A stretch of DNA of 64,000 nt. Source: Candidatus Poribacteria bacterium. Lineage in GTDB: Bacteria; Poribacteria; WGA-4E; JAJDTR01. Both the position numbers and the translations under genes were made by a program. The DNA lies in NCBI GenBank assembly GCA_965222225.1, contig CBDCTK010000002.1, positions 5,294,977 through 5,358,976 on the forward strand, read 5' to 3'. Positions 2,259 to 58,699 of the stretch are shown in pieces. A model generated the notes under the pieces. The model saw only the letters and a list, made by a program, of their open reading frames with translations, had not been told where the DNA came from and searched no databases. Position 1 is the first letter of the stretch. Each line of letters begins with the position of its first letter.

Positions 2259-3335
2259 TTAAACCTCCGGTACCGGGACACGATAGGATTCGGCAATTTC
2301 TACCAAACGCTTCCAGGTTTTCTCTTCGATTGGAATCCCTTCCTTCATGCGTTGGGCGCGGCTATGCGCCTCAAATTCGCCGGGAACGTAGATTTCATCC
2401 ACGCCGGGAAGCCTGTTCGAGGATTTGACCCACTCAACCATATACTCTATCTCCTCGGTGTAGGTGTCGAGATCGATGAAATCCTGTATTTTCATGACAA
2501 TCATCACAATTCCGCTCCCGCCGCGAGTTGGTTCGTCGCGGCTGCACCCCGCCCATGAGAGTCCACCGGCAATTGCATCAATCATGAATCCCAAACCAAA
2601 ACCTTTATGCCCGAATTGGAAGCCCCCCAGCGGCATCACCGCCGTATCCTCTACCCTGTCATTAAACGCGCTCGGATCCGTAACCGGGTTACCCTCCGAA
2701 TCAATCATCCAGCCCTCCGGCATCTCCTGGTCGCGTGCCGATTTGATGGCGATTTTGCCGCCAGCCACGACGCTAAGCGTCATATCAAGCATTAGCGGTT
2801 CACCGTGCTTGCGAGGGACGGCAATCGCTATTGGATTGGGGGGCAACCGTCGTGAAGTTCCCCCGAACGGGTGCATGAAGCGGTTGCCGCCGTTGAGCAG
2901 GACGATACCAATCATCCCTTCCTCCGCAGCCTGAGGTGGGTAGGTTCCCATACGTCCGGCATGACCGCAGTTGTATAGCGCTACTGCTCCCAGCGTTCTC
3001 GATTTCGCCTTTTCGATGGCGAGATCCATGGCTTTCTTCGCCGCCACCATGCCAAGCGCATCGTTGACATTGATAACGGCGCTGGCGGGGGTTTCACGGA
3101 CAATTTCCATCCGCTCCTCCGACGGTCCCGCTTTCATCGTGTCTATGTAAAAATCGGTGCGCATCACGCCGTGCGAGTCGTGACCCATAAGATTGGAATC
3201 GCAGAGGTGATCGCTGACAATTCGCGCATCCTCCTCCACCGCGCCGACGTTGATATAGATGTTGTACACCATCTCCTTAAGTGCTGCGTATGGAACATGA
3301 ACCATAAAAATTTCTCCCTTCACAGTAGTAGGCAT
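2259..3335 (-). CDS. Ldh_2 family dehydrogenase (malate/L-lactate/ureidoglycolate/sulfolactate dehydrogenase type 2)
   Basis: 358 aa. N-terminal signature …DSNLMGHDSHGV…; the overall family pattern is recognised by eye only. Confidence 0.7.
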   Translation of the reverse strand: MPTTVKGEIFMVHVPYAALKEMVYNIYINVGAVEEDARIVSDHLCDSNLMGHDSHGVMRTDFYIDTMKAGPSEERMEIVRETPASAVINVNDALGMVAAKKAMDLAIEKAKSRTLGAVALYNCGHAGRMGTYPPQAAEEGMIGIVLLNGGNRFMHPFGGTSRRLPPNPIAIAVPRKHGEPLMLDMTLSVVAGGKIAIKSARDQEMPEGWMIDSEGNPVTDPSAFNDRVEDTAVMPLGGFQFGHKGFGLGFMIDAIAGGLSWAGCSRDEPTRGGSGIVMIVMKIQDFIDLDTYTEEIEYMVEWVKSSNRLPGVDEIYVPGEFEAHSRAQRMKEGIPIEEKTWKRLVEIAESYRVPVPEV

Positions 3336-3420
3336 ACTCCGTATGCCGTACTCCGCCTTCCTTGTAAAGTCCTAAAATAGGTTTACAGATTTTATTACGC
3401 ATTACTCTTCACGTATTACC

Positions 3421-3877
3421 CCTTAAATTACCGGCACGATTTCTACGTCCGAACGTTTGGCGAACTGATCAACCGCACCGTTGAAAACACCTCTGCTGCC
3501 ACGAACCAAATCCTCGCCGCGAGTCACGCTAAAGTTCTCATACGTCGTAGGATTGGGGTGAGACGAATTGGTTTCCTGAAAGTAGTGGGCAACAATGATT
3601 TTAGGCGTGACGTTCTCCTTGATTCAGGTTCGGGTTCCTGATACCAATTTCATTCATCAACTGTGTTAACTCCAAGTTGATTTAGGGCTTCCTTCAAAAG
3701 AAGATTTTTCAGTCCATCGGACCCGTACGTTCTATCGAAAAACTACACCGCGTCCTTGTTTTCGTCCAATCCTCTGCCACTCAACACTTCCCACAGATCC
3801 GCCGCAAAGACCTCTTGGGTGAGTCTTCCTTCTAAAATATCACTGTGCGGCACAGCAATTGTGTGGAAGGGATTCAT
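3421..3877 (-). pseudogene. Decayed gene remnants: a 44-aa N-terminal fragment (MNPFHTIAVPHSDILEGRLTQEVFAADLWEV…, stop after 44 aa) plus a downstream protein-like fragment (…IIVAHYFQETNSSHPNPTTYENFSVTRGEDLVRG…)
   Basis: Manual minus-strand translation gives clearly protein-like segments interrupted by stops. There is no intact ORF of 60 aa or more between the Ldh_2 gene and hepT. From memory the N-terminal motif resembles a defence-associated ATPase family (DUF499-like); this is unverified. Coordinates are approximate because the printed sequence line at 3781 is short. Confidence 0.35.
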
Positions 3878-3914
3878 TTGCGTAGCCCCTTAATCATCTG
3901 TTCAATCTTCAGCT

Positions 3915-4220
3915 TCAGAGCCGGCATATCTGATTGCACGATTTCCCAAACAATCTCAATATTGTGACATCGAAATATCCGTGAATGAGAATGTCTCTTA
4001 AGCCGGCAATTTTTCGCCACTCAACACTTGGATACTCCTCTCGAAGGGACTCAGGCACCTGTTTGACAGCTTCACCAATGACTTCAATGTTTTGGATAAT
4101 CGCGTCAAATCGCATCCGATCAGATTCAAACTCCGTGCGAGTGATTCCCTGCATGTACGCTTGAATTCGATTGATTGCTTCTAAAACATCTTCAAGGTAA
4201 ATCTCATAGTTTCGCGACAT
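3915..4220 (-). CDS. hepT: HepT-like HEPN toxin (DUF86) of a HepT/MntA toxin-antitoxin pair
   Basis: 101 aa. C-terminal R-x4-H-x-Y motif ([11 protein letters not shown]). Overlaps the upstream nucleotidyltransferase gene by 17 nt. Confidence 0.75.
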
Positions 4221-4527
4221 ATTCGACTTCTTTTTCGATGTGCGGTCTCAAACCCGGTTTGACAGAATTGGAAATCACCAGGTCAATCTTTTTTTCAAAC
4301 AAATCTTCAAGGAATATACGTAGCCCCATGTAATTATCGAATGACAGTTTCTTAAATTCTACGAGCAGGTCAATGTCACTGTCCTCGCGGGCCGCACCAT
4401 TGACATAAGAACCGAAGAGTCCAAGCCATTTCACACTGTATTCTTTCAGTGTACCTTGGTGCTTAAGAAGCGTCTGTTCAATTTCGTTTTTGGATAAGAT
4501 GCTTGGCTTTATCTTTTCCGTTTCCAT
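4204..4527 (-). CDS. mntA: MntA-like minimal nucleotidyltransferase antitoxin
   Basis: 107 aa. GS…D-x-D motif ([22 protein letters not shown]). Lies immediately upstream of, and overlaps, hepT. Confidence 0.75.
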
Positions 4528-4613
4528 CTCTGCTTTTCCGCGATTCTACCAGCCTAGCCTTCTTGCGCGTTGAGATAGTCAAATCTCCTCCACGGCGCGA
4601 GTCTGCGTCTACC

Positions 4614-6899
4614 CTAAGACGATTCGGTTTCTCCTTCCTCGAAAGCGCTGCGAATCTCTTTGAAAAGTGTAATGGCTTTACGTCGCCTATCGTTGGGTAA
4701 ATCACTCGCATCCGTCATTTTGCTAAGCGCTCCGTGCACTCGGATAGCCAACGATTCCTTGGTGATTTCTATACCCTTGTCTTCCATAAATCGCTCGATT
4801 CCTTCCCAGATTACGCCTTCACCGCGTAAAGAAATCTCATTCACATTCGCAAGTGCTAGTTGCTTGCTGTAAGCATCCATAAGATCCTCTGCAAAAAAAT
4901 CCTCCGAAAAGAGGTCTTCAATAGCGAAATTACCATTGGTTCCCACGGCGTCACCCAGTAACAGAGATTTGGTTTGATGAGTTTTATAAGGTGCGAGCCA
5001 TGTTTTAACCAGTTTCACCTGAGCGCTTCGTCCTTCATCATCAGAATCGAACAAGGCGACCACCTTTAACCCCTGTCCGGTCATAAATGTGGCAATATTA
5101 ACAGCCGCGAAGGAGCTTCCCCCGGGCGTGGTGAGTACATCCTCCGGCAAGCCCCCTTTCCCATCTTGTTGCAGCAAGTTAGATAATTTCGTCAGGATTC
5201 GATACTCATTGACCCCCTCTACGACAAGATTGCGTTGGGCGACCACAAAACACTGTGAAGCGTTTATTCCTAAAGCTGCCTGAAATACGCGTTTTGCTTC
5301 TGGAGGGCTCTCGGTAAAGTCAGTCGTGACAACGGTGCCATTCTTCGTTTCCATCAACACTCGGATTCGGTCCGAATAGTTCAGATCAATCATAAAAGGA
5401 AGATGAGTCGTATAGAGAAGCGTATTCCCCTCTGCATAGTGGTCAAGCCGGAGAAGTAGGTCTTTTTGGGCATCGGGATGAAGATGAAGTCCGGGTTCGT
5501 CAAGGAGAACGACACATCCTTCAAACGATCCTTGACTTTCGTGCATCAACATGAGATCGAAGGGAAAAAACCACTGAAATCCTTTCGATCGCTCCTCCAG
5601 TCGAATGAGTGCCGGATCGTGATTGTCTTTTACAAAGGTGAAGAAATGCTGGCCGTCGGCGCGGTACTCAACTTCATATTGACGCTGACGAAGTCGATTC
5701 GAAATTTTACTCGTTAGCGTGGCGGTGCCATCGTCAAGATCGAATTGGCGTTGCTCGACATGGTCCGGATTGCCCTCTTCAAGATTAACCACCTCGTCTA
5801 AGCTCGACTTTGTACAAAAGTACAATGGTTGGGTTGTACGGAAAGCCATACAACACCAAACCCGTAGGCGGGGCATCTTGCCCCGCCATGCAACACCGAA
5901 ATTCGAGTGACACCCAACACATTATCTGCATGATACTGGAAACCGCTACCGACTTTTTCAATGGTCTGCCAAAAAGCCGAGAGAATCAAAATCTCCTTCG
6001 CTTTTCGACAACACTTGATTATCGCTGCTTGTTATGTCTCTAAAATGTACAAAGTCGAGCTAAGTCGAGACCGGATAACGTAAGGAGAGCCAGAAATGTG
6101 TTATCTTCGTCTGTCAAACGATTTTGGTCGTGGCGAACTTTAATCTCATCCAGTTGAGCCGTGCCGCTAAATGCCCTGTAATCAGACATATAGACAAATG
6201 TGGGCAAATGATCTCTAACGTACTTGTGCGCTTTTGATCGAATGGTAGGCAATTGTTCAAGTGTCTGAACAAACTGCTTAAGGCTTTTACCGTAGCAATT
6301 GACGAACTTGCTCTCAATCTGCTTCAAAGGGGCCTCCGGCGATCGCACTTCGCGCAACAACGACTTGTGCTTCTGTACCAGTTTTGTCAACTCTGTCAAT
6401 TGTCCCTCATGCGCCAGGCGTCTCGCGTCTTCAAGGCATTCACCGGCGCGATGTTTAATCGGTCACCGAGCCCTTCTGGAATCTCCGGCAGGGAATAGCA
6501 GGCTTTATCGACATCGCCCGGATGATGTTCATCCGAGAGAAAATCTTCCTCAAATTCTACAGTTAATTCACCGGCATAATTTCGTGACACCTCCACACAA
6601 TCCGGAATATCTTCGCACTCCGCCATTCGACCGAGATCCGACTTCTCCCGATCTGAGAGTCTAAGCCTTACTCGACAAACCTCCTGTTTTTCGCTTCGCC
6701 CTTTTCGATGGGCACGCGGCCACTCCCGTTCCATCTGGTATGGGTCCGGATTGTACGGGTTGAGCTTATGGAGCGCCTTCAGAAGGGTAGTCTTGCCTGA
6801 TTCGTTTTTGCCAACAAACACTGTTAGAGGATTCACCTCAATCCACCCGGAGTCAAGTATTCCTTTGTACATCTTTACACGAAAGGCAATCAAGTCCAT
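4614..6899 (-). pseudogene. Disrupted OLD-family ATP-dependent nuclease (ABC-type ATPase plus TOPRIM), split into three ORF fragments
   Basis: Fragment 6396..6899 carries the Walker A motif (VFVGKNESGKTTLLKAL). Fragment 4614..5876 carries Walker B (VVLLDEPGLHLHP) and the TOPRIM motifs (VVEGVNEYRIL; LFDSDDEG). Fragments 1 and 2 are joined by a frame break (the TGA stop overlaps a TTG). Fragments 2 and 3 are separated by the MITE-like insertion at 5802..6060. Confidence 0.65.
5802..6060. mobile_element. MITE-like non-autonomous insertion (259 bp) with perfect 15-bp terminal inverted repeats GCTCGACTTTGTACA, flanked by TAA direct repeats
   Basis: Left inverted repeat at 5802-5816 and right inverted repeat (tgtacaaagtcgagc) at 6046-6060. 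TAA lies at 5799-5801 and 6061-6063. The interior has no coding capacity and carries a GC hairpin (ggcggggcatcttgccccgcc). Removing the element plus one TAA joins ORF 6040..6399 and ORF 4614..5876 in frame (…TLSGLD|LDEVVNLEE…). Confidence 0.7.
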
Positions 6900-14940: not shown

Positions 14941-16032
14941 ATGAAAGCGACAATTGCAGTATTGGAAGGCGACGGAATCGGTCCCGAAATCATGGCAGAA
15001 GGTCTCAAGGTCCTTGATGCCATAGCAGCGCGATACAACCACGATTTTGAATATAAACGATGCGCGTTCGGTGCCGCTGCGTATTTCACCACGGGATCGG
15101 CATTTCCGGACCAAACCCGTGAAGTATGTGATGAGGCAGATACCATCATCAAGGGGCCCGTTGGGATTGCCGTTCGAGAAATGAACCGAATTCCTACCGA
15201 GGAACGACCTGAGTTGGCGGTATTGGAATTGCGAGAACGATACACGACCTTCGCCAATTATCGCCCCGTAAAACTACCGTCATCTTTGGCTAGCTTCTCG
15301 CCACTGCGTGAGGATCGTTTGGGAGCAGGCATCGACATTCTCATGATCCGAGAACTCACGGGGGATATATACTTCGGTAAAAAGCGGGAGGGAAAGGACA
15401 CCGGAATGCAATTTGCCCAAGACGATTGTGTCTACACGGAGGAGCAGATTCGGCGTGTTGCAACGACTGCCTTTGAAGAGGCGCGGGCTCGGAACGTGCA
15501 GCTCACCAACGTTGATAAAGCGAATATACTTGCCACCTCAAGGTTCTGGCGCGCAATTGTGGAGGAAACCGCCCGCTCATTTCGGGAGGTGCCGCTTCAG
15601 CACGTGTTGGTGGACAATGCAGCCTACCAACTCGTCATCGATCCGACACAGTTCAACGGCGTGATGTTACTTGGCAATATGAACGGTGACATTTTGAGCG
15701 ATGAAGCGGGAGGAATCATCGGATCCCTCGGACTTATGCCATCAGCCTGCGTGGGCCCTGAGAAAGTTTTCGTGGAACCCGTGCACGGTGCGGCACCGGA
15801 CATTGCGGGTACGGGACAAGCTAATCCTTATTCGATGATTGGCAGCGCCGCCCTGATGCTTGAAAAAGGACTTGGGCTAAACGAGGAATCTAATCTGATC
15901 TGGGACTGCCTATTTGGTGTTTTTGAACAAGGCTATGTTACGGCCGAGCTTGCCGCGGCGGTGAAACGGGGAACGGTACTTTCTACGTCGGAGTTTGGGG
16001 ATCGCGTAGCAAGCGCGATACAAACGGCTTAA
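14941..16032 (+). CDS. leuB: 3-isopropylmalate dehydrogenase-like (isocitrate/isopropylmalate/tartrate dehydrogenase family)
   Basis: MKATIAVLEGDGIGPEIMAEGLKVL N-terminus and the IRE(L)TGDIYFG motif. 363 aa, typical of LeuB or tartrate dehydrogenase. Confidence 0.7.
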   Translation: MKATIAVLEGDGIGPEIMAEGLKVLDAIAARYNHDFEYKRCAFGAAAYFTTGSAFPDQTREVCDEADTIIKGPVGIAVREMNRIPTEERPELAVLELRERYTTFANYRPVKLPSSLASFSPLREDRLGAGIDILMIRELTGDIYFGKKREGKDTGMQFAQDDCVYTEEQIRRVATTAFEEARARNVQLTNVDKANILATSRFWRAIVEETARSFREVPLQHVLVDNAAYQLVIDPTQFNGVMLLGNMNGDILSDEAGGIIGSLGLMPSACVGPEKVFVEPVHGAAPDIAGTGQANPYSMIGSAALMLEKGLGLNEESNLIWDCLFGVFEQGYVTAELAAAVKRGTVLSTSEFGDRVASAIQTA

Positions 16033-16068
16033 GTTCTGCGGTTTGACAAATCACTTGGCGTTCTTCGG

Positions 16069-16091
16069 TGGAGCGATCTCCGAATCGCGAC
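16069..16091. repeat. Palindromic-element 5' module (GGAGCGATCTCCGAATCGCGAC), partial
   Basis: Lies immediately downstream of the leuB-like stop. Possibly a terminator or stability hairpin. Confidence 0.6.
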
Positions 16092-16155
16092 TTCAATTCC
16101 TCCCAGTGATTCAGAGCAACTGCCACTTGAATCTCCACGGTTCAACCGACAAATG

Positions 16156-17001
16156 TTATCGCTTAGTCGCTAATTCACGTTTTAGCCGTTTGGCGTTCTC
16201 AATCTTAACCTCGAATTGTCGTAAATCACTAGCCTTTTCAAGAAAGAGATTCAGATACAATTGGGTCATGGACGCATTGCCCTCCTCCTTGTACAACTGA
16301 CTGAGCCGGTAATAGACCTCCGGATCCGTCGAGTCGAGCGACAACGCCTTTTCATACGTGCGAATCGCTTGATTCAATCGTCCCGAATCTTGAAACGCTT
16401 CGCCCAAGCTAACATGCGCATCCGCGTCGCTTTGATCTAGGCTGATTGTCCTCTCGTAATTCTCGATAGCAACCTCAAACTCTCCCCGCGCGTGCTGAGC
16501 CACCGCCAAATTATAATAGGCATCTTGGAATTCCGGGTCAATTTCGATTGCCCCACGATAGGCTTTGACCGCTTCTTCAAATTCGCCCTCACTGTCGTAA
16601 GCGTATCCCAAATTGTTATAGAACACTGGATTGTCCGGCTCCACCCGAATCGCCTCCCGGAACGCTTTAGTCGCCTCATCATTTAGCCGCAAACTTAGGT
16701 ATACCAATCCAAGGTGGTTATGAGTTTTCGCGTTCTCGTCATCAAGGCTCACCGCCGTCCGGAATGCCTCAATCGCTTTATCGTGCTCGCCCAGATCATG
16801 GTAGGTTTTCCCGAGTTGAAAGTGTCCCTCCGCGTCCTCCGGCGTTAAACCCATTCCCATTCTAAGTTTGAACGCTTCGCGTTTAAGTTGCTCTTGCCGT
16901 TGCGTGGCTTCATCGGGAGGCTGGCAACCTGAGAATATGAGCCAGGCGCTGAGCATAATACGAATCGAGGTGTGTAGTCGACTGAACGATGGCGAACGCA
17001 T
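16156..17001 (-). CDS. TPR-repeat lipoprotein
   Basis: Signal peptide with a lipobox-like LIFSGC. Multiple 34-aa TPR units (…AIEAFRTAVSLD…, …AIENYERTISLD…). Confidence 0.7.
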   Translation of the reverse strand: MRSPSFSRLHTSIRIMLSAWLIFSGCQPPDEATQRQEQLKREAFKLRMGMGLTPEDAEGHFQLGKTYHDLGEHDKAIEAFRTAVSLDDENAKTHNHLGLVYLSLRLNDEATKAFREAIRVEPDNPVFYNNLGYAYDSEGEFEEAVKAYRGAIEIDPEFQDAYYNLAVAQHARGEFEVAIENYERTISLDQSDADAHVSLGEAFQDSGRLNQAIRTYEKALSLDSTDPEVYYRLSQLYKEEGNASMTQLYLNLFLEKASDLRQFEVKIENAKRLKRELATKR

Positions 17002-18619: not shown

Positions 18620-19071
18620 CAGTACTTGGCTCCTTCCTCTGGGTCCTTATGATACACACGGCTAATCTCCGCAACGCCTCCGTGTTTGTATTTTTCCGGT
18701 ACGCGGGGATGGTCTGCAAAAACACACACCTTGTATATATCCGGCAAGAGTTGATAGCTCCCTCCCCACGGTGTTTGGGGAAGGTCTTCAAGGTAACTTC
18801 CCTTCCAGCCTTCAAGTCCGGGGTTGGTAACCAGATCTTCCAGCCTCATGGGATATGTGTTGGTATGCCTGTGAAATTTCTTAATGACTCCGGCAATCAT
18901 GTCCACGTCGTTGTCGGCAGACAAAACTTTTCGGTCATATTCTAGATACGGTGGCAACGAAAGGGCGGCGATAAGAATGACTAGCGCGACCAAAATGAGT
19001 AGCTGTACTAGTGTCATGCCGGCTGCACAAGATCCGAATCTGCTTTTTGCGTTATTCAGAGTATGGTTCAT
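18610..19071 (-). CDS. Prepilin-type N-terminal cleavage/methylation domain protein (pilin or pseudopilin-like)
   Basis: G|MTLVQLLILVALVILIA hydrophobic N-terminal helix after a short basic leader. Overlaps pilD (10 nt) and the upstream regulator (1 nt). Confidence 0.55.
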   Translation of the reverse strand: MNHTLNNAKSRFGSCAAGMTLVQLLILVALVILIAALSLPPYLEYDRKVLSADNDVDMIAGVIKKFHRHTNTYPMRLEDLVTNPGLEGWKGSYLEDLPQTPWGGSYQLLPDIYKVCVFADHPRVPEKYKHGGVAEISRVYHKDPEEGAKYWWK

Positions 19072-20477
19072 CAGTATGGTTCATCATCTGGACGTTTGAT
19101 GTTGTATTTGGCGAGTTTTTTGTAGAAATTACTTCTCTCTATTTTCAATTGTTCCGCAGTTTGTTTCACATTCCAGCGGTTAGCCTCGAGCGCTTGGAGA
19201 ACGAAACTCTTCTCGGCTTCATCGACCAACTTTTGTAGTGAGCCGTTTGATTGCGGTTGAAGACTGATGGACGTTGCGTCAATCTCTATTACAGCCTCAT
19301 GTGCAACTGGGAGGACAGCGGCGACATCGTCGGCGATGATGGTTTCACGAGGTACCATGATGAGCAAGCGTTCGACGATGTTCTTCAACTCCCGAATATT
19401 GCCCGGCCAGTCGTACGATTGCATGACGCGAATTGCCGAAGGGTCGATTGTCTTGATCGAACGCGCATTATCCCGATGAAATCGCTCGACGAAGTGTTGT
19501 ACCAATAGCGGTAAATCATCCTGCCGATTCTGTAATGGCGGTACGGAGATAGGCACCACATTTAAGCGATAGTAAAGGTCCTGCCGAAAGCTTCCATTCT
19601 CAATCTCTTTATCCAAGGCTTTGTTGGTCGCTGCGATAACTCTTACGTCAACATGCAGCGTTTGGCTGCCGCCGAGACGCTGAATTTCACCATACTCAAG
19701 CACTCGCAATACTTTCGCCTGCGCCTTCAGGCTCATATCCCCGATTTCGTCGAGAAACAGCGTGCCGCCATCTGCCAGTTCAAATTTGCCGCGGCGCTGG
19801 TGCGCTGCCCCGGTGAATGCGCCCCGTTCGTGTCCGAATAACTCACTTTCAATGAGTTCGTCTGGGAGAGCGGCGCAATTCAGTGGAATGAATGGCTTTC
19901 GGTTTCGTTGACTCTGCTGATGGATAGCATCGGCGACGAGTTGTTTGCCCGTGCCGTTTTCTCCTGTGATGAGTACGCTCAAGTCACTTGACGCCACCTG
20001 CCTAATTTGTGTTCGGAGTTGCTGTATAGCGCCCCCTGTCCCAATCATCTCATCCTTGACGCCAATCTGAGATTTAAGAACTTCGTTCTCCCGAGATAGG
20101 CGTAATAGTTCTAGAAAAGGATTAACAGTGTGAAGGATCTCGGATACAGTTTTGGGCTTGACGAGGTAATTCCTTGCGCCAAGTTCCATTGCTTTAACCG
20201 CGGTTTCAATGTCCTGTTGCGCGGACATCATTACCACATTCAAATCCGGCTGGGTTTTTCTCAGATTCGTTAATGTCTCTATGCCATTCATTCCGCCCGG
20301 CATGATTATGTCAAGCAGCACAAGGTCTACGGCTTTTGAGGCGCAGATTTCCACTGCTTTCTCTCCGCTTGAAGCCGTTAGCGCTGTATAGCCTTCGAGT
20401 TTTAGACCTTGCGAGACCGATGCCAAGGCGTTTTTTTCGTCGTCTACAATTAGAATCGTACCCTTCGTTGATGCCAT
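19071..20477 (-). CDS. Sigma-54-dependent response regulator (NtrC/PilR family): receiver, AAA+ and HTH domains
   Basis: ILIVDDE receiver motif, GENGTGKQLVADAIH Walker A and a GAFTGA-like loop (ERGAFTGA). 468 aa. Confidence 0.85.
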   Translation of the reverse strand: MASTKGTILIVDDEKNALASVSQGLKLEGYTALTASSGEKAVEICASKAVDLVLLDIIMPGGMNGIETLTNLRKTQPDLNVVMMSAQQDIETAVKAMELGARNYLVKPKTVSEILHTVNPFLELLRLSRENEVLKSQIGVKDEMIGTGGAIQQLRTQIRQVASSDLSVLITGENGTGKQLVADAIHQQSQRNRKPFIPLNCAALPDELIESELFGHERGAFTGAAHQRRGKFELADGGTLFLDEIGDMSLKAQAKVLRVLEYGEIQRLGGSQTLHVDVRVIAATNKALDKEIENGSFRQDLYYRLNVVPISVPPLQNRQDDLPLLVQHFVERFHRDNARSIKTIDPSAIRVMQSYDWPGNIRELKNIVERLLIMVPRETIIADDVAAVLPVAHEAVIEIDATSISLQPQSNGSLQKLVDEAEKSFVLQALEANRWNVKQTAEQLKIERSNFYKKLAKYNIKRPDDEPY

Positions 20478-37628: not shown

Positions 37629-37955
37629 GATGACCAAGCCGTCGATTGTCCCTAATTATCTTGTCATTCAATCGTTGCTCCTTTCTTCAACTAAGTCAGT
37701 GGAAATCAAGAAAGGTAATCCTACAAAATTTACGCACCGACCTACGTCAAGAAAAGATGAACTTCGCATGGGGGAGGCAGATGTATTGAAAACACGAAAG
37801 TCACAGCAATGGGCAGGACAAGGTTTAAGGTTTGATGGCGTGCAAACCATCAGCAACTGTTCAGAATTGGTTCGCGCACATTGTTTTATTCTTGAATAAC
37901 CGCTGACATCCTATCGACAAATAAATCGTCGTAACCCTAAGAGCCTGTTTGAAAA

Positions 37956-38130
37956 GTACATTTGTAGGGTGCGCACTGCGCACCAACCTCTAAAAGCCCC
38001 AGAGTGGGATCAAGGGAGCGAATAGCGACTGCGATAGAGATCCATGAAGGTGTATAGAAACGCCAAAACCCCGTGCACCTAAGCCCCAGCGGGGATCAAA
38101 CGAACGGATAGTGAGTGCGATAGCAATCCC
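37956..38130. repeat. Composite: GTACATTTGTAGGGTGCGCACTGCGCACC hairpin module plus a GATCAA/GCGATAG array
   Basis: gatcaagggagcgaatagcgactgcgatagagatcc … gatcaaacgaacggatagtgagtgcgatagcaatccc. Confidence 0.8.
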
Positions 38131-38272
38131 ATAGGTACGTAGCAGGCAACAATTAAGACATGGAAGAACTTCCCACAAATGACCAAAAATGGCTTTCCTA
38201 TCGATTATTCAAACAGGTTCTAAACGAAGACCGGGGGAATGGATGCAGAGAATTGCAACTCGCCTCAATTCC

Positions 38273-56954: not shown

Positions 56955-57003
56955 ATCAATCATGGGAATCGATAGTAATTGCGATAGAGCTCCTATAGAG
57001 ATT
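56955..57003. repeat. GCGATAG-family array, interrupted at its 3' end by the IS insertion
   Basis: aatcgatagtaat / tgcgatagagctcc / tatagagatt. Confidence 0.7.
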
Positions 57004-58252
57004 CGGAATTAGTAGCTTGTAGCTTTTAGACTGACGACAAACATAAAACTTGGTACCCTGTCGTAAATCTTTTCGTCGCACGTAGATGTCCATAGTGACT
57101 ATTCTTCTCGTAGGAGTTTGCTATGGACATTTTGAATCTTATGAAAGAGTTTCCAAATCAAGAATCTTGTCTCAGATTTATAGAGGAAAAACGTTGGAAG
57201 GACGGTGTTTGCTGTATCCACTGTGGCAGTGAAAAAGTTGGACGCAAGAACAGAAACGACATTACTACTGGTTGGAATTGCTACGATTGTGAATCTAGCT
57301 TTTCGGCTACAGCAGGAACCATCTTCCATGGTACCAAGATACCTCTCCAGAAATGGTTTTTGGCTATCTCAATCCTTTCCAATGCCAAGAAAAACATATC
57401 GAGTTGTCAGCTTGCTCGTGACTTGGACATGAATCAAAAGTCCGCTTGGTATATGGCAATGCGCCTCCGTGAGAAAATGAGTGATAGTGATGAATTGCTG
57501 AAAGGGATAGTTGAAGCGGACGAAACCTATGTCGGCGGCAAACCCAGAGCAAAATCTAAGAGAGGTAGAGGCACAAATAAATCTCCCGTCATCGGCGTAG
57601 TCGAGAGAGGCGGTCGGGTGGTTGCTAAATTCATGAAGGTTCTATCTGGTGAAAATATCAGAGAATTCATCCTTAGCAATGTCTCACCCGATGAGTCTAT
57701 TCTTATGACTGATGAATTTCGCTCTTACAATAGTCTGGACGAAGATATCGAAAGACATGTTATCCATCACCAAGAGAGATATGTTTCTGAGGACGGCGTA
57801 ACTCACACCAATACCATCGAGTCGGTTTGGGCTTGTGTCAAGAGGTCATTCTACGGAACGCATCATCACTACAGCAAGAAGTGGCTGCCACTGTATATCA
57901 TGGAGTCTTGCTGGAAATATAATCGCAGAAAAGATGATGAGATTTTCATAAGATTTTTTGATGAATGCTTCACCTGAGCCACATGAATTGTTTGGCTATC
58001 GGTATATTCTGTCAACGACAGCATCATGGTATGATGTAAATCCCATAGTGTTGGAAATTAAAATCCCGCAGATAACCCGCAATGCTCCCGCGAGCATGTA
58101 CAAACGCTTGGTCAACATGATATGCCTCCATTTCTCTCTTATAGAGATGTATTTTAGTGTGAATCAAGATTCCGAACACTGTCTAAAGTTATTGTACATT
58201 AAGAAAAGAAAAGCAAGCAAATCAACCAAAAAGCAGTTAACTACTAAGTCCC
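57004..58252 (+). mobile_element. IS1595-family insertion sequence (1249 bp) with imperfect 23-bp terminal inverted repeats and an 8-bp target-site duplication TAGAGATT
   Basis: Left end CGGAATTAGTAGCTTGTAGCTTTT matches the reverse complement of the right end (GGGACTTAGTAGTTAACTGCTTTT) at about 17 of 23 positions. Direct repeats TAGAGATT at 56996-57003 and 58253-58260. An 8-bp duplication is typical of IS1595. Confidence 0.8.
57123..57977 (+). CDS. IS1595-family (ISXO2-like) DDE transposase
   Basis: N-terminal zinc ribbon (CIHCGS…CYDCES), then …QKWFLAI… and ADETYVGGK, characteristic of IS1595/ISXO2 transposases. 284 aa. Confidence 0.85.
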   Translation: MDILNLMKEFPNQESCLRFIEEKRWKDGVCCIHCGSEKVGRKNRNDITTGWNCYDCESSFSATAGTIFHGTKIPLQKWFLAISILSNAKKNISSCQLARDLDMNQKSAWYMAMRLREKMSDSDELLKGIVEADETYVGGKPRAKSKRGRGTNKSPVIGVVERGGRVVAKFMKVLSGENIREFILSNVSPDESILMTDEFRSYNSLDEDIERHVIHHQERYVSEDGVTHTNTIESVWACVKRSFYGTHHHYSKKWLPLYIMESCWKYNRRKDDEIFIRFFDECFT

Positions 58253-58278
58253 TAGAGATTTCCTCAAACGAGTGACTA

Positions 58279-58415
58279 GATCAATCGACTGAATAAAGAA
58301 CACGGTAGAAATCGCGCTGTAATAGGGTTCCCATAAAAATTTTCACCAGCCTTTGAAAGGCCCTGCGTGAGATCAAGCGAGCGGATAGCGATTCCCTAGG
58401 TGTATAGCAATACTA
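58279..58415. repeat. GATCAA/GCGATAG-family array, the continuation of the array split by the IS
   Basis: gatcaatcgactgaataaag … gatcaagcgagcggatagcgattccc. Confidence 0.7.
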
Positions 58416-58699
58416 AGTCACTTCACATCAAATTCCAGGCGGGGCGGCAAGTGTATAACAACTGAGGTAAGTGTTTGTGCCGTTTTCTTGGATAGCTCCC
58501 GCTGCCGACCCTTGGTTCCAGAGAATAAAACAGAGGAACGACATGCTGCACGGTGTCGGAAACCGCTGTCAACTATTTAAATGGTCAATCAACAAGGCCA
58601 GATAATCGAAATCTTCCCTGCTTTTGTTCAACGCTTGATTGGCGCTGTATGTTGTGCCGTTCGAATGTAAAGAGTCGAGCTAATACCTTATGAGAAATT

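Follow-up and report, generated by a model that had tools for sequence, protein, structure and literature searches.

The 64-kb stretch of Candidatus Poribacteria DNA analysed here, called the window below, carries a predicted defence gene of the OLD family that is split by a miniature inverted-repeat transposable element (MITE) of 257 bp. The insertion is real and is polymorphic among strains that are 97–99% identical in the OLD gene, with the empty site present in two related loci and the occupied site on three separate contigs. The element belongs to a multi-copy family, and its ends and right part are homologous to full-length insertion sequences (ISs) of the IS701 family that bear the same ends. 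We consider it very probable that the account as a whole is correct, namely that an IS701-derived MITE was inserted at a CTAAG pentamer and split the OLD gene, that its presence varies between strains, and that a frameshift was added later. A first-pass annotation of the window, made from the sequence alone, had proposed a MITE inserted in an OLD-family gene, and this core claim is borne out by the empty and occupied alleles (two and three, respectively), by dozens of further copies and by an autonomous partner. The result is a fully documented MITE knock-out of a predicted defence gene in an uncultivated lineage; it involves no new mechanism, since the disruption of genes by ISs and MITEs, defence genes included, is already well known.

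Occupied and empty sites in the OLD gene

A search with the reconstructed window protein returned P0001, an intact homologue of 674 aa with 94% amino acid identity over its full coverage, and intact 674-aa homologues are the norm. The contig that encodes P0001 (L003) is about 97% identical to the window at the nucleotide level in the gene region and has the same gene neighbourhood, consisting of an NHL-repeat gene, a beta-eliminating lyase gene and the OLD gene. Where the minus strand of the window reads CTCGAC-TTAG-(element)-CTTAG-ACGAG, L003 reads CTCAAC-TTAG-ATGAG. Both L003 and a second locus, L154, lack exactly 262 bp at this place, have a single CTAAG each, and read through the insertion point as LTLSGLNLDELVDF (L003) and LTLSGLDLDELVNLEE (L154); in these two loci the alignment of OLD homologues across the junction, which had been suggested as a check, finds the site uninterrupted and the element absent. 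The same insertion at the same place is found in L004 and L155, with 0 and 2 mismatches, respectively, to the window over 267 nt; these two contigs come from one sample and, together with the window, make up the three occupied contigs. The features of the disrupted gene and of the element are as follows, in window coordinates.

4614–5797, minus strand: C-terminal fragment of the OLD gene, with Walker B, the H-loop and the TOPRIM motifs VVEGVNEY and FDSDDEG
5798–5802, no strand: left copy of the target duplication, CTAAG; a single CTAAG stands at the empty sites L003 and L154, and the flanks co-vary in 73 elements
5803–6059, plus strand: the MITE itself, 257 bp, in full-length alignment with 24 copies in Candidatus Poribacteria metagenome-assembled genomes (MAGs)
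5803–5816, plus strand: left terminal inverted repeat (TIR), CTCGACTTTGTACA, corresponding to the IS 5' end, where the match to the 1451-bp IS in L152 covers 26 nt from its start at 88% identity
5867–5887, no strand: GC hairpin with a 9-bp stem (GGCGGGGCA/TGCCCCGCC) and a 3-nt loop, in the central module and not IS-derived
5937–6044, plus strand: degenerate remnant of the C-terminal coding region of an IS701 transposase (WKPLPTFSMVCQKAERIKISFAFRQHLIIAACYVSK; blastx of MITE copies against IS transposases, E = 1e-7)
6046–6059, minus strand: right TIR, TGTACAAAGTCGAG, corresponding to the IS 3' end by sequence match
6060–6064, no strand: right copy of the target duplication, CTAAG, identical to the pentamer at 5798–5802
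6065–6461, minus strand: middle fragment of the OLD gene, from alignment to the intact P0001
about 6462, minus strand: 1-nt deletion causing a frameshift (GGTGATCCG in relatives, GGTGACCG here), from alignments with L003 and among five alleles
6463–6899, minus strand: N-terminal part of the OLD gene with Walker A (GKNESGKT); Pfam AAA_15 and AAA_23

The plus orientation of the MITE is the one in which the ancestral transposase was encoded, and relative to the OLD gene the element is therefore in antisense orientation. The perfect 15-bp inverted ends described in the first-pass annotation (GCTCGACTTTGTACA at 5802–5816 and its exact reverse complement at 6046–6060), the TAA outside both of them (5799–5801 and 6061–6063) and the GC hairpin inside are all found in the sequence. 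The ends form the sole perfect inverted pair of at least 15 nt with a spacing of 100–600 nt in the window, for which the chance expectation is about 0.03. Within the boundaries given above, the TIR is perfect over 14 bp, or over 15–16 bp when part of the duplication is counted. The body had been taken to be non-coding, and this needs amending: degenerate coding sequence of a transposase makes up its right 40%. The longest open reading frames (ORFs) of the element are 58–77 aa, and the C-terminal transposase remnant is its only recognisable coding content. The hairpin is conserved among copies of the window's MITE subtype; no T-run follows it and it is not a canonical terminator, and a scan for promoters and terminators gave no signal above shuffle background. 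The MITE folds more strongly than its shuffles (z = -5.8), due mostly to the terminal repeats. Rfam gave no match in the whole window at the gathering threshold, and a single chance-level match (E = 0.9) in 5700–6150 at a relaxed threshold. The element at 5803–6059 is thus a classical bacterial MITE, with all the defining features that could be checked present.

Target duplication, copies and parent element

The boundaries of the element follow from its flanks. The consensus of the flanking duplication is CTWAG in the 73 complete elements among the matches listed, and perfect 5-bp direct repeats surround 25 of the 47 MITE-sized copies. In these 47 copies, concordant non-consensus pairs were observed nine times at position 1 and four times at position 5, where about 1.2 and 0.7, respectively, are expected by our own estimate from the flank base counts. 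The outer bases vary jointly on both sides, as in TTAAG/TTAAG, ATTAG/ATTAG, GTAAG/GTAAG, CTGAA/CTGAA and CTCCG/CTCCG. Because the supposed outermost repeat bases co-vary as a direct repeat, the element is 5803–6059, with a 14-bp TIR and a 5-bp duplication. The perfect CTAAG/CTAAG around the IS in L152 fits 5 bp, any single site alone being also compatible with 4 bp.

Further copies with the same ends, which the first-pass annotation had proposed to look for, are numerous. A strict two-ended scan covering one genome per species returned 27: 24 from seven Candidatus Poribacteria MAGs, which can be aligned from end to end (about 250 bp), and three from Chloroflexota, which have only the ends in common. 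Two subtypes are present in Poribacteria, one with the tight hairpin seen in the window and a majority type with a 37-nt GATAG repeat in the loop, and the copy nearest to the window MITE is L014, at 88.7%. A single-end scan of metagenome contigs gave at least 120 loci, in some of which two inverted matches lie about 1460 bp apart. The family occupies dozens of unrelated insertion sites, and the flanking duplication differs from site to site. No paper came up in a literature search for MITEs in Poribacteria, and the family may be unnamed so far; it can now be defined by the ends CTCGACTTTGTACA, the target CTWAG and a P0238-like parent transposase.

The window itself contains a second, diverged copy (site B) at 58418–58679 on the plus strand, whose left TIR is degenerate and whose flanks are CTAAG (58413–58417) and CTAAT (58680–58684). 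What had been read as a possible solo end at about 58658 is instead the right end of this full-length copy. Site B is 72% identical to 5926–6063 over about 138 nt (blastn, E = 5e-21); against the IS, it is 74% identical over the final 108 nt and has a further match to positions 1185–1290. It lies immediately upstream of a SurA-like gene and is present at 98% identity in the matching loci L001 and L002, in which a third, partial copy (site C) lies just past the window's right edge.

Elements of IS size with the same ends number 26 among the matches listed; they are about 1290–1800 bp long, mostly 1430–1505 bp, and most have one ORF of about 450–480 aa that ends 14–32 nt from the 3' end. The search for an autonomous partner, also proposed at the outset, leads to IS701-type elements of 1451–1475 bp. 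The transposase of L073 matches the NCBIfam model NF049999 (transpos_IS701_3, 'IS701 family transposase') with 324.3 bits and E = 1e-96, the curated cutoff being 170 bits, and its relatives P0121–P0240, including P0238 and P0227, carry PF13546 in precomputed annotations. The right 105–118 nt of the MITE align to the 3' end of the IS701-type ISs. In particular, the last 109 nt (window 5951–6059) align without gaps to IS positions 1343–1451 at 74% identity (E = 3e-18), and the same alignment reaches 88–91% identity in the copies L030 and L007. In translation, the right end of the MITE matches the transposase C-terminus, WYWKPLPTFS...MVKISPAFLQRLIDTVCYAT against AWYTKPLPTFS...VVKVPRSLLDRLVNTLCYAA (E down to 1e-7). 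Among 120 database relatives, P0238 has a C-terminus that shares 93% identity with the remnant carried by the MITE copy of L031, and 83–89% with those of L005 and L007. The contig of P0238 is L152, and there the 1451-bp IS with its perfect duplication lies beside companion repeats that are also seen in the window and in Poribacteria MAGs. The middle of the MITE, about 120 nt, is not IS-derived. Judged from these alignments, the MITE is an internal-deletion derivative of an IS701-family IS, one that Candidatus Poribacteria genomes commonly carry.

Several other elements were considered as the partner and rejected. The IS1595-family IS beside site B has ends of its own (GGAATTAGTAG) and an 8-bp duplication (TAGAGATT), and the ends of a DDE_Tnp_1 IS in L002 are likewise different (GGTGCTAGTTT). 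An IS5-type partner was considered because the duplication was initially read as a 3-bp TWA, and the IS5-family IS with GAGCCTGTTTGAAAAGT ends in L030 has no convincing similarity to the MITE in its ends or subterminal regions. In agreement with a non-IS5 partner, a metagenome scan found no TIR 86–146 nt from the IS5-type R-W-x-V-E-R motif; a tblastn search with the IS5 transposase added nothing new. The fetched genome loci contained no inverted TIR pairs 600–3000 bp apart.

The host gene, its two lesions and the alternatives

The assignment of the host gene to the OLD family draws on several lines of comparison. Pfam identifies AAA_15 and AAA_21 in P0001 and the window fragments, and the Walker motifs GKNESGKT and LLDEPGLHLHP are readable in the sequence. 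The top PADLOC match is Old (7e-15), whose model aligns to residues 376–539, followed by AriA and GajA. Among solved structures the Class 1 OLD nuclease from Thermus scotoductus ranks first (6P74, 4.9e-7), in an alignment that takes in Walker B and the H-loop and reaches through the first TOPRIM motif (LLVEGYGD vs LVVEGVNEY), with a DxD-like FDSDDEG further on; a TOPRIM domain in the host protein is likely on these similarities. The gene stands alone in the window, between the beta-eliminating lyase gene and an MNT/HepT toxin–antitoxin pair, and no UvrD-type helicase adjoins it. The MNT/HepT-type pair lies directly downstream on the minus strand (3915–4527) and is composed of a Polbeta nucleotidyltransferase (4204–4527) and a HepT-like protein (3915–4220). 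The OLD gene of the L154 and L155 alleles is directly followed by a gene of about 1040 aa, which in L155 is a SNF2/DEAD-type helicase with a NOV_C region, called in pieces. Because the downstream gene differs in these alleles, we read the spot as variable and defence-island-like.

The MITE and the frameshift have broken the gene into pieces that resemble separate genes. As an ORF (4614–5876), the C-terminal fragment takes its ATG, at 5876, from the MITE and encodes 420 aa, and P0093 is the identical product called in another assembly. The minus-strand ORF 6040–6399 enters the MITE and terminates inside it, and the N-terminal ORF 6396–6899, of 167 aa, runs out of frame after the frameshift to a stop at 6396–6398. 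Public protein collections list the three fragments of the broken gene individually, as proteins of 420 (or 392), 119 and 167 aa, which are annotation artefacts of a pseudogene. The family definition given above is of use in annotating repeat-rich Poribacteria genomes and in avoiding false calls such as the 420-, 119- and 167-aa "proteins".

Precise excision had been predicted to restore the reading frame, and this is correct in part. Deleting 5802–6063 (262 bp) fuses the minus-strand ORFs 6040–6399 and 4614–5798 in frame (...TLSGLD-LDEVVNLEE...), so the two ORFs that flank the element do rejoin. The Walker A fragment, however, stays out of frame with the middle fragment owing to the separate 1-nt deletion at about 6462, and excision alone would therefore leave the gene broken in this genome. 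The deletion is present in the window and L004, absent from L155, L003 and L154, and lies outside homopolymers. The MITE-bearing alleles cluster at ≥98.7% identity, and the empty ones stand at about 97%. In L154 the gene is called as 167 plus 507 aa (P0257 being the 507-aa part), and the five-allele alignment reveals differing single-base indels in or beside homopolymers in L154 and L155, plus a further T-run indel in both. We have moderate confidence that the most economical history, one insertion followed by the deletion at about 6462 in the sublineage of the window and L004, gives the order of the two lesions as it probably was. The OLD gene in the window's lineage is a decaying pseudogene, in which OLD function has presumably been lost. 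In the cluster of P0001, many members are truncated (219–566 aa) despite long contigs, which may reflect either frequent independent decay of this OLD gene or long-read indel errors.

The series of events that best accounts for these observations begins with an IS701-family IS of about 1450 bp that lost its interior, giving rise to a MITE that kept the 14-bp TIRs, with about 26 nt retained at the 5' end and 109 nt at the 3' end around an unrelated, hairpin-containing middle of about 120 nt. As the MITE encodes no transposase, one of the IS701 family, provided in trans by a full-length copy, would bind the TIRs and insert the MITE at a CTWAG-like pentamer, duplicating it; such mobilisation in trans is suggested by the shared ends and the insertion polymorphism. 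Here the MITE entered a CTAAG in a stand-alone OLD-family gene (ABC ATPase plus TOPRIM), on the opposite strand, splitting it between the middle region of the ATPase and the Walker B/TOPRIM part and leaving an upstream ORF that stops within the MITE. The 1-nt deletion at about 6462 would have added the frameshift later, in the window's lineage.

A number of observations weigh against this account. At the window site alone, duplications of 3, 4 and 5 bp are indistinguishable and have the same excision product. A perfect 5-bp duplication is found in only 8 of the 26 IS-sized copies, and the central base is often discordant between the two sides; recombination between copies would probably account for this. 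A 5-bp duplication is described for the ISAba11 subgroup of the IS701 family. For the family in general, the published summary gives 4-bp direct repeats (PMC6352166, Table), against 5 bp here, so that the duplication is either a departure from the family listing or a subgroup trait. There is no full-length partner in the window or in about 40 kb of flanking DNA in L001 and L002, which leaves current mobility in this genome unproven. The Pfam TOPRIM models have no match to the host protein at E ≤ 0.1, and the OLD assignment therefore depends on the motifs and on what PADLOC and the PDB match. Finally, L004, L154 and L155 are long-read contigs of 2x coverage with evident indel errors, which weakens the proposed order of the two lesions.

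This last point bears on the alternative that deserves the most attention, in which the OLD gene had already been killed by the frameshift before the MITE arrived, so that the MITE did not inactivate a working gene. The window and L004 have both lesions, the MITE-free L154 is nevertheless called as 167-aa and 507-aa fragments, and the many truncated members of the intact-allele cluster suggest that the gene may be pseudogenised often. The 1-nt deletions, however, differ among alleles, and L155 carries the MITE without the 6462 deletion, which is confined to a subset of the MITE-bearing cluster (≥98.7% identity); the indels of L154 and L155, in or beside homopolymers on 2x contigs, look like read errors. 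The idea had arisen from protein lengths (the 507 aa of P0257) and was downgraded in view of these differing, error-prone indels, and we now think it unlikely. Insertion before frameshift remains our preferred order.

The remaining alternatives concern the nature of the element. The first-pass annotation had placed it with Tc1/IS630-type MITEs, with a TA or TAA duplication and, by implication, an IS630-family transposase. TA-containing targets are typical for IS630/Tc1 elements, and TAA does stand on both sides of the MITE, but the bases outside TAA co-vary within a 5-bp direct repeat of consensus CTWAG, all 26 long elements listed with these ends belong to one IS group, the L073 transposase is of the IS701 family, the MITE has IS701 3'-end sequence with a transposase remnant, and no IS630-type gene was seen; we give this affiliation hardly any credence. 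It is equally hard to believe in a non-transposon origin, be it a structured RNA, an intron-like insert, a palindrome of the REP (repetitive extragenic palindromic) type, or a 262-bp deletion in the relatives through direct repeats. The strong hairpin and the fold score would suit such an origin, and short direct repeats can mediate deletions, but Rfam has no match at its gathering threshold, the sequence occurs at dozens of unrelated sites with a duplication particular to each, its ends are homologous to those of transposase-encoding ISs, and intact 674-aa homologues are the norm. Repeats can also mislead assemblers, and some of the supporting contigs have 2x coverage, yet the junctions are identical and the 5-bp duplication is clean on the window, L004 and L155 contigs, so the chance that assembly misplaced a repeat in the gene is practically negligible. 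An IS701-derived MITE that disrupts the OLD gene is the reading we retain.

Some further ideas reach beyond this reading, and we consider them very unlikely. The strong CTWAG preference and the 5-bp repeats would permit occasional precise loss of the MITE, and its presence or absence in the OLD gene might belong to an on/off polymorphism that recurs and is open to selection in Poribacteria populations, the defence gene being costly. The MITE-supplied ATG could also allow the free Walker B/TOPRIM fragment to be expressed from the 420-aa ORF. The central module, a hairpin that accepts a 37-nt GATAG unit in its loop, could represent an undescribed class of small mobile or regulatory repeats.

Companion repeats and comparison with known systems

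The genomes studied are very rich in polymorphic mobile elements. The window contains a second MITE family at 37941–38220, with GAGCCTGTTTGAAAAGT ends and a TAA duplication, whose full-length partner, a 951-bp IS5-family IS, occurs twice in L030 (714–1664 and 2283–3233). IS701-type elements and MITEs very often directly abut IS5-type ends (L007, L013, L021, L152 at 4905–4935, L153 at 2575–6371, and others), and in L153 one IS5 copy is flanked by two IS701 copies. An IS5-type end together with its TWA duplication (...CTC-TWA-GAG...) recreates most of CTWAG, which would explain the nesting. Chimeric elements, with IS701-derived ends and right half, interior modules of the IS5-type MITE and GATAG units, are present in L026 (3141–3479) and L027 (2526–2972), and indicate that the MITE families exchange modules.

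The 37-nt unit GATCAAGCGAGCGGATAGCGAGTGCGATAGAGATCCC, which has palindromic ends, is found at least nine times in the window, always on the plus strand (2131, 8977, 20737, 20784, 37564, 38008, 38094, 44721 and 60158), and never in 10 shuffles. Other Poribacteria MAGs have it inside the hairpin loop of MITEs of the majority subtype, and it recurs around sites B and C and, on both strands, in L152; it has no Rfam match. The IS1595-family IS at 57004–58252 encodes a transposase at 57123–57977 (Pfam DDE_Tnp_IS1595, 2e-36, plus a zinc ribbon) and has GGAATTAGTAG-type ends and copies of its 8-bp duplication TAGAGATT at 56996–57003 and 58253–58260. Intergenic spacing suggests that L001 and L002, which otherwise match the window here, lack this IS, so that it looks polymorphic as well. 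L002 in turn has an extra DDE_Tnp_1 IS (15306–16289, ends GGTGCTAGTTT) and, by eye, an apparent IS3-type orfB fragment (18658–19074), both of which are missing from L001.

Among known systems, the host protein is closest to the Class 1 OLD proteins, such as that of Thermus scotoductus (6P74) and Old of phage P2, with which P0001 shares an N-terminal ABC-type ATPase (Walker B DEPGLHLH) and TOPRIM-like motifs. It differs from 6P74 (528 aa) in being longer (674 aa), only distantly related (E = 4.9e-7) and without a Pfam TOPRIM match, and the gene of about 1040 aa directly after the OLD gene in L154 and L155 means that the OLD class of the host gene is not fixed.

The IS5-family ISs and MITEs with GAGCCTGTTTGAAAAGT ends resemble the family described here in their TWA-centred target, and they abut and recombine with it; they differ in their ends, their DUF4096 plus DDE_Tnp_1 transposase (263 aa), their 951-bp IS and their 3-bp duplication. 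The parent element is best compared with the IS701 family (IS701, ISAba11, ISDge5, ISTth8), with which it shares a length of 1450–1475 bp, a single transposase ORF, TIRs and a short duplication; the listed size of 1400–1550 bp and the single ORF of the family (PMC6352166, Table) match it. What sets it apart is the 5-bp duplication with a strong CTWAG preference and its hosts, Candidatus Poribacteria and Chloroflexota. The MITE itself is like other IS-derived bacterial MITEs, such as the MaeMITE families of Microcystis (PMC2779907), in its length below 600 bp, its IS-identical TIRs, its target duplication, the lack of a transposase, the many copies per genome and the insertion polymorphism between strains. 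Compared with these MITEs, only about 26 nt at the 5' end and 109 nt at the 3' end are IS-derived here, and the middle is a separate module, either a GC hairpin or a hairpin with the 37-nt GATAG repeat; chimeras with the IS5-ended MITE family occur as well.

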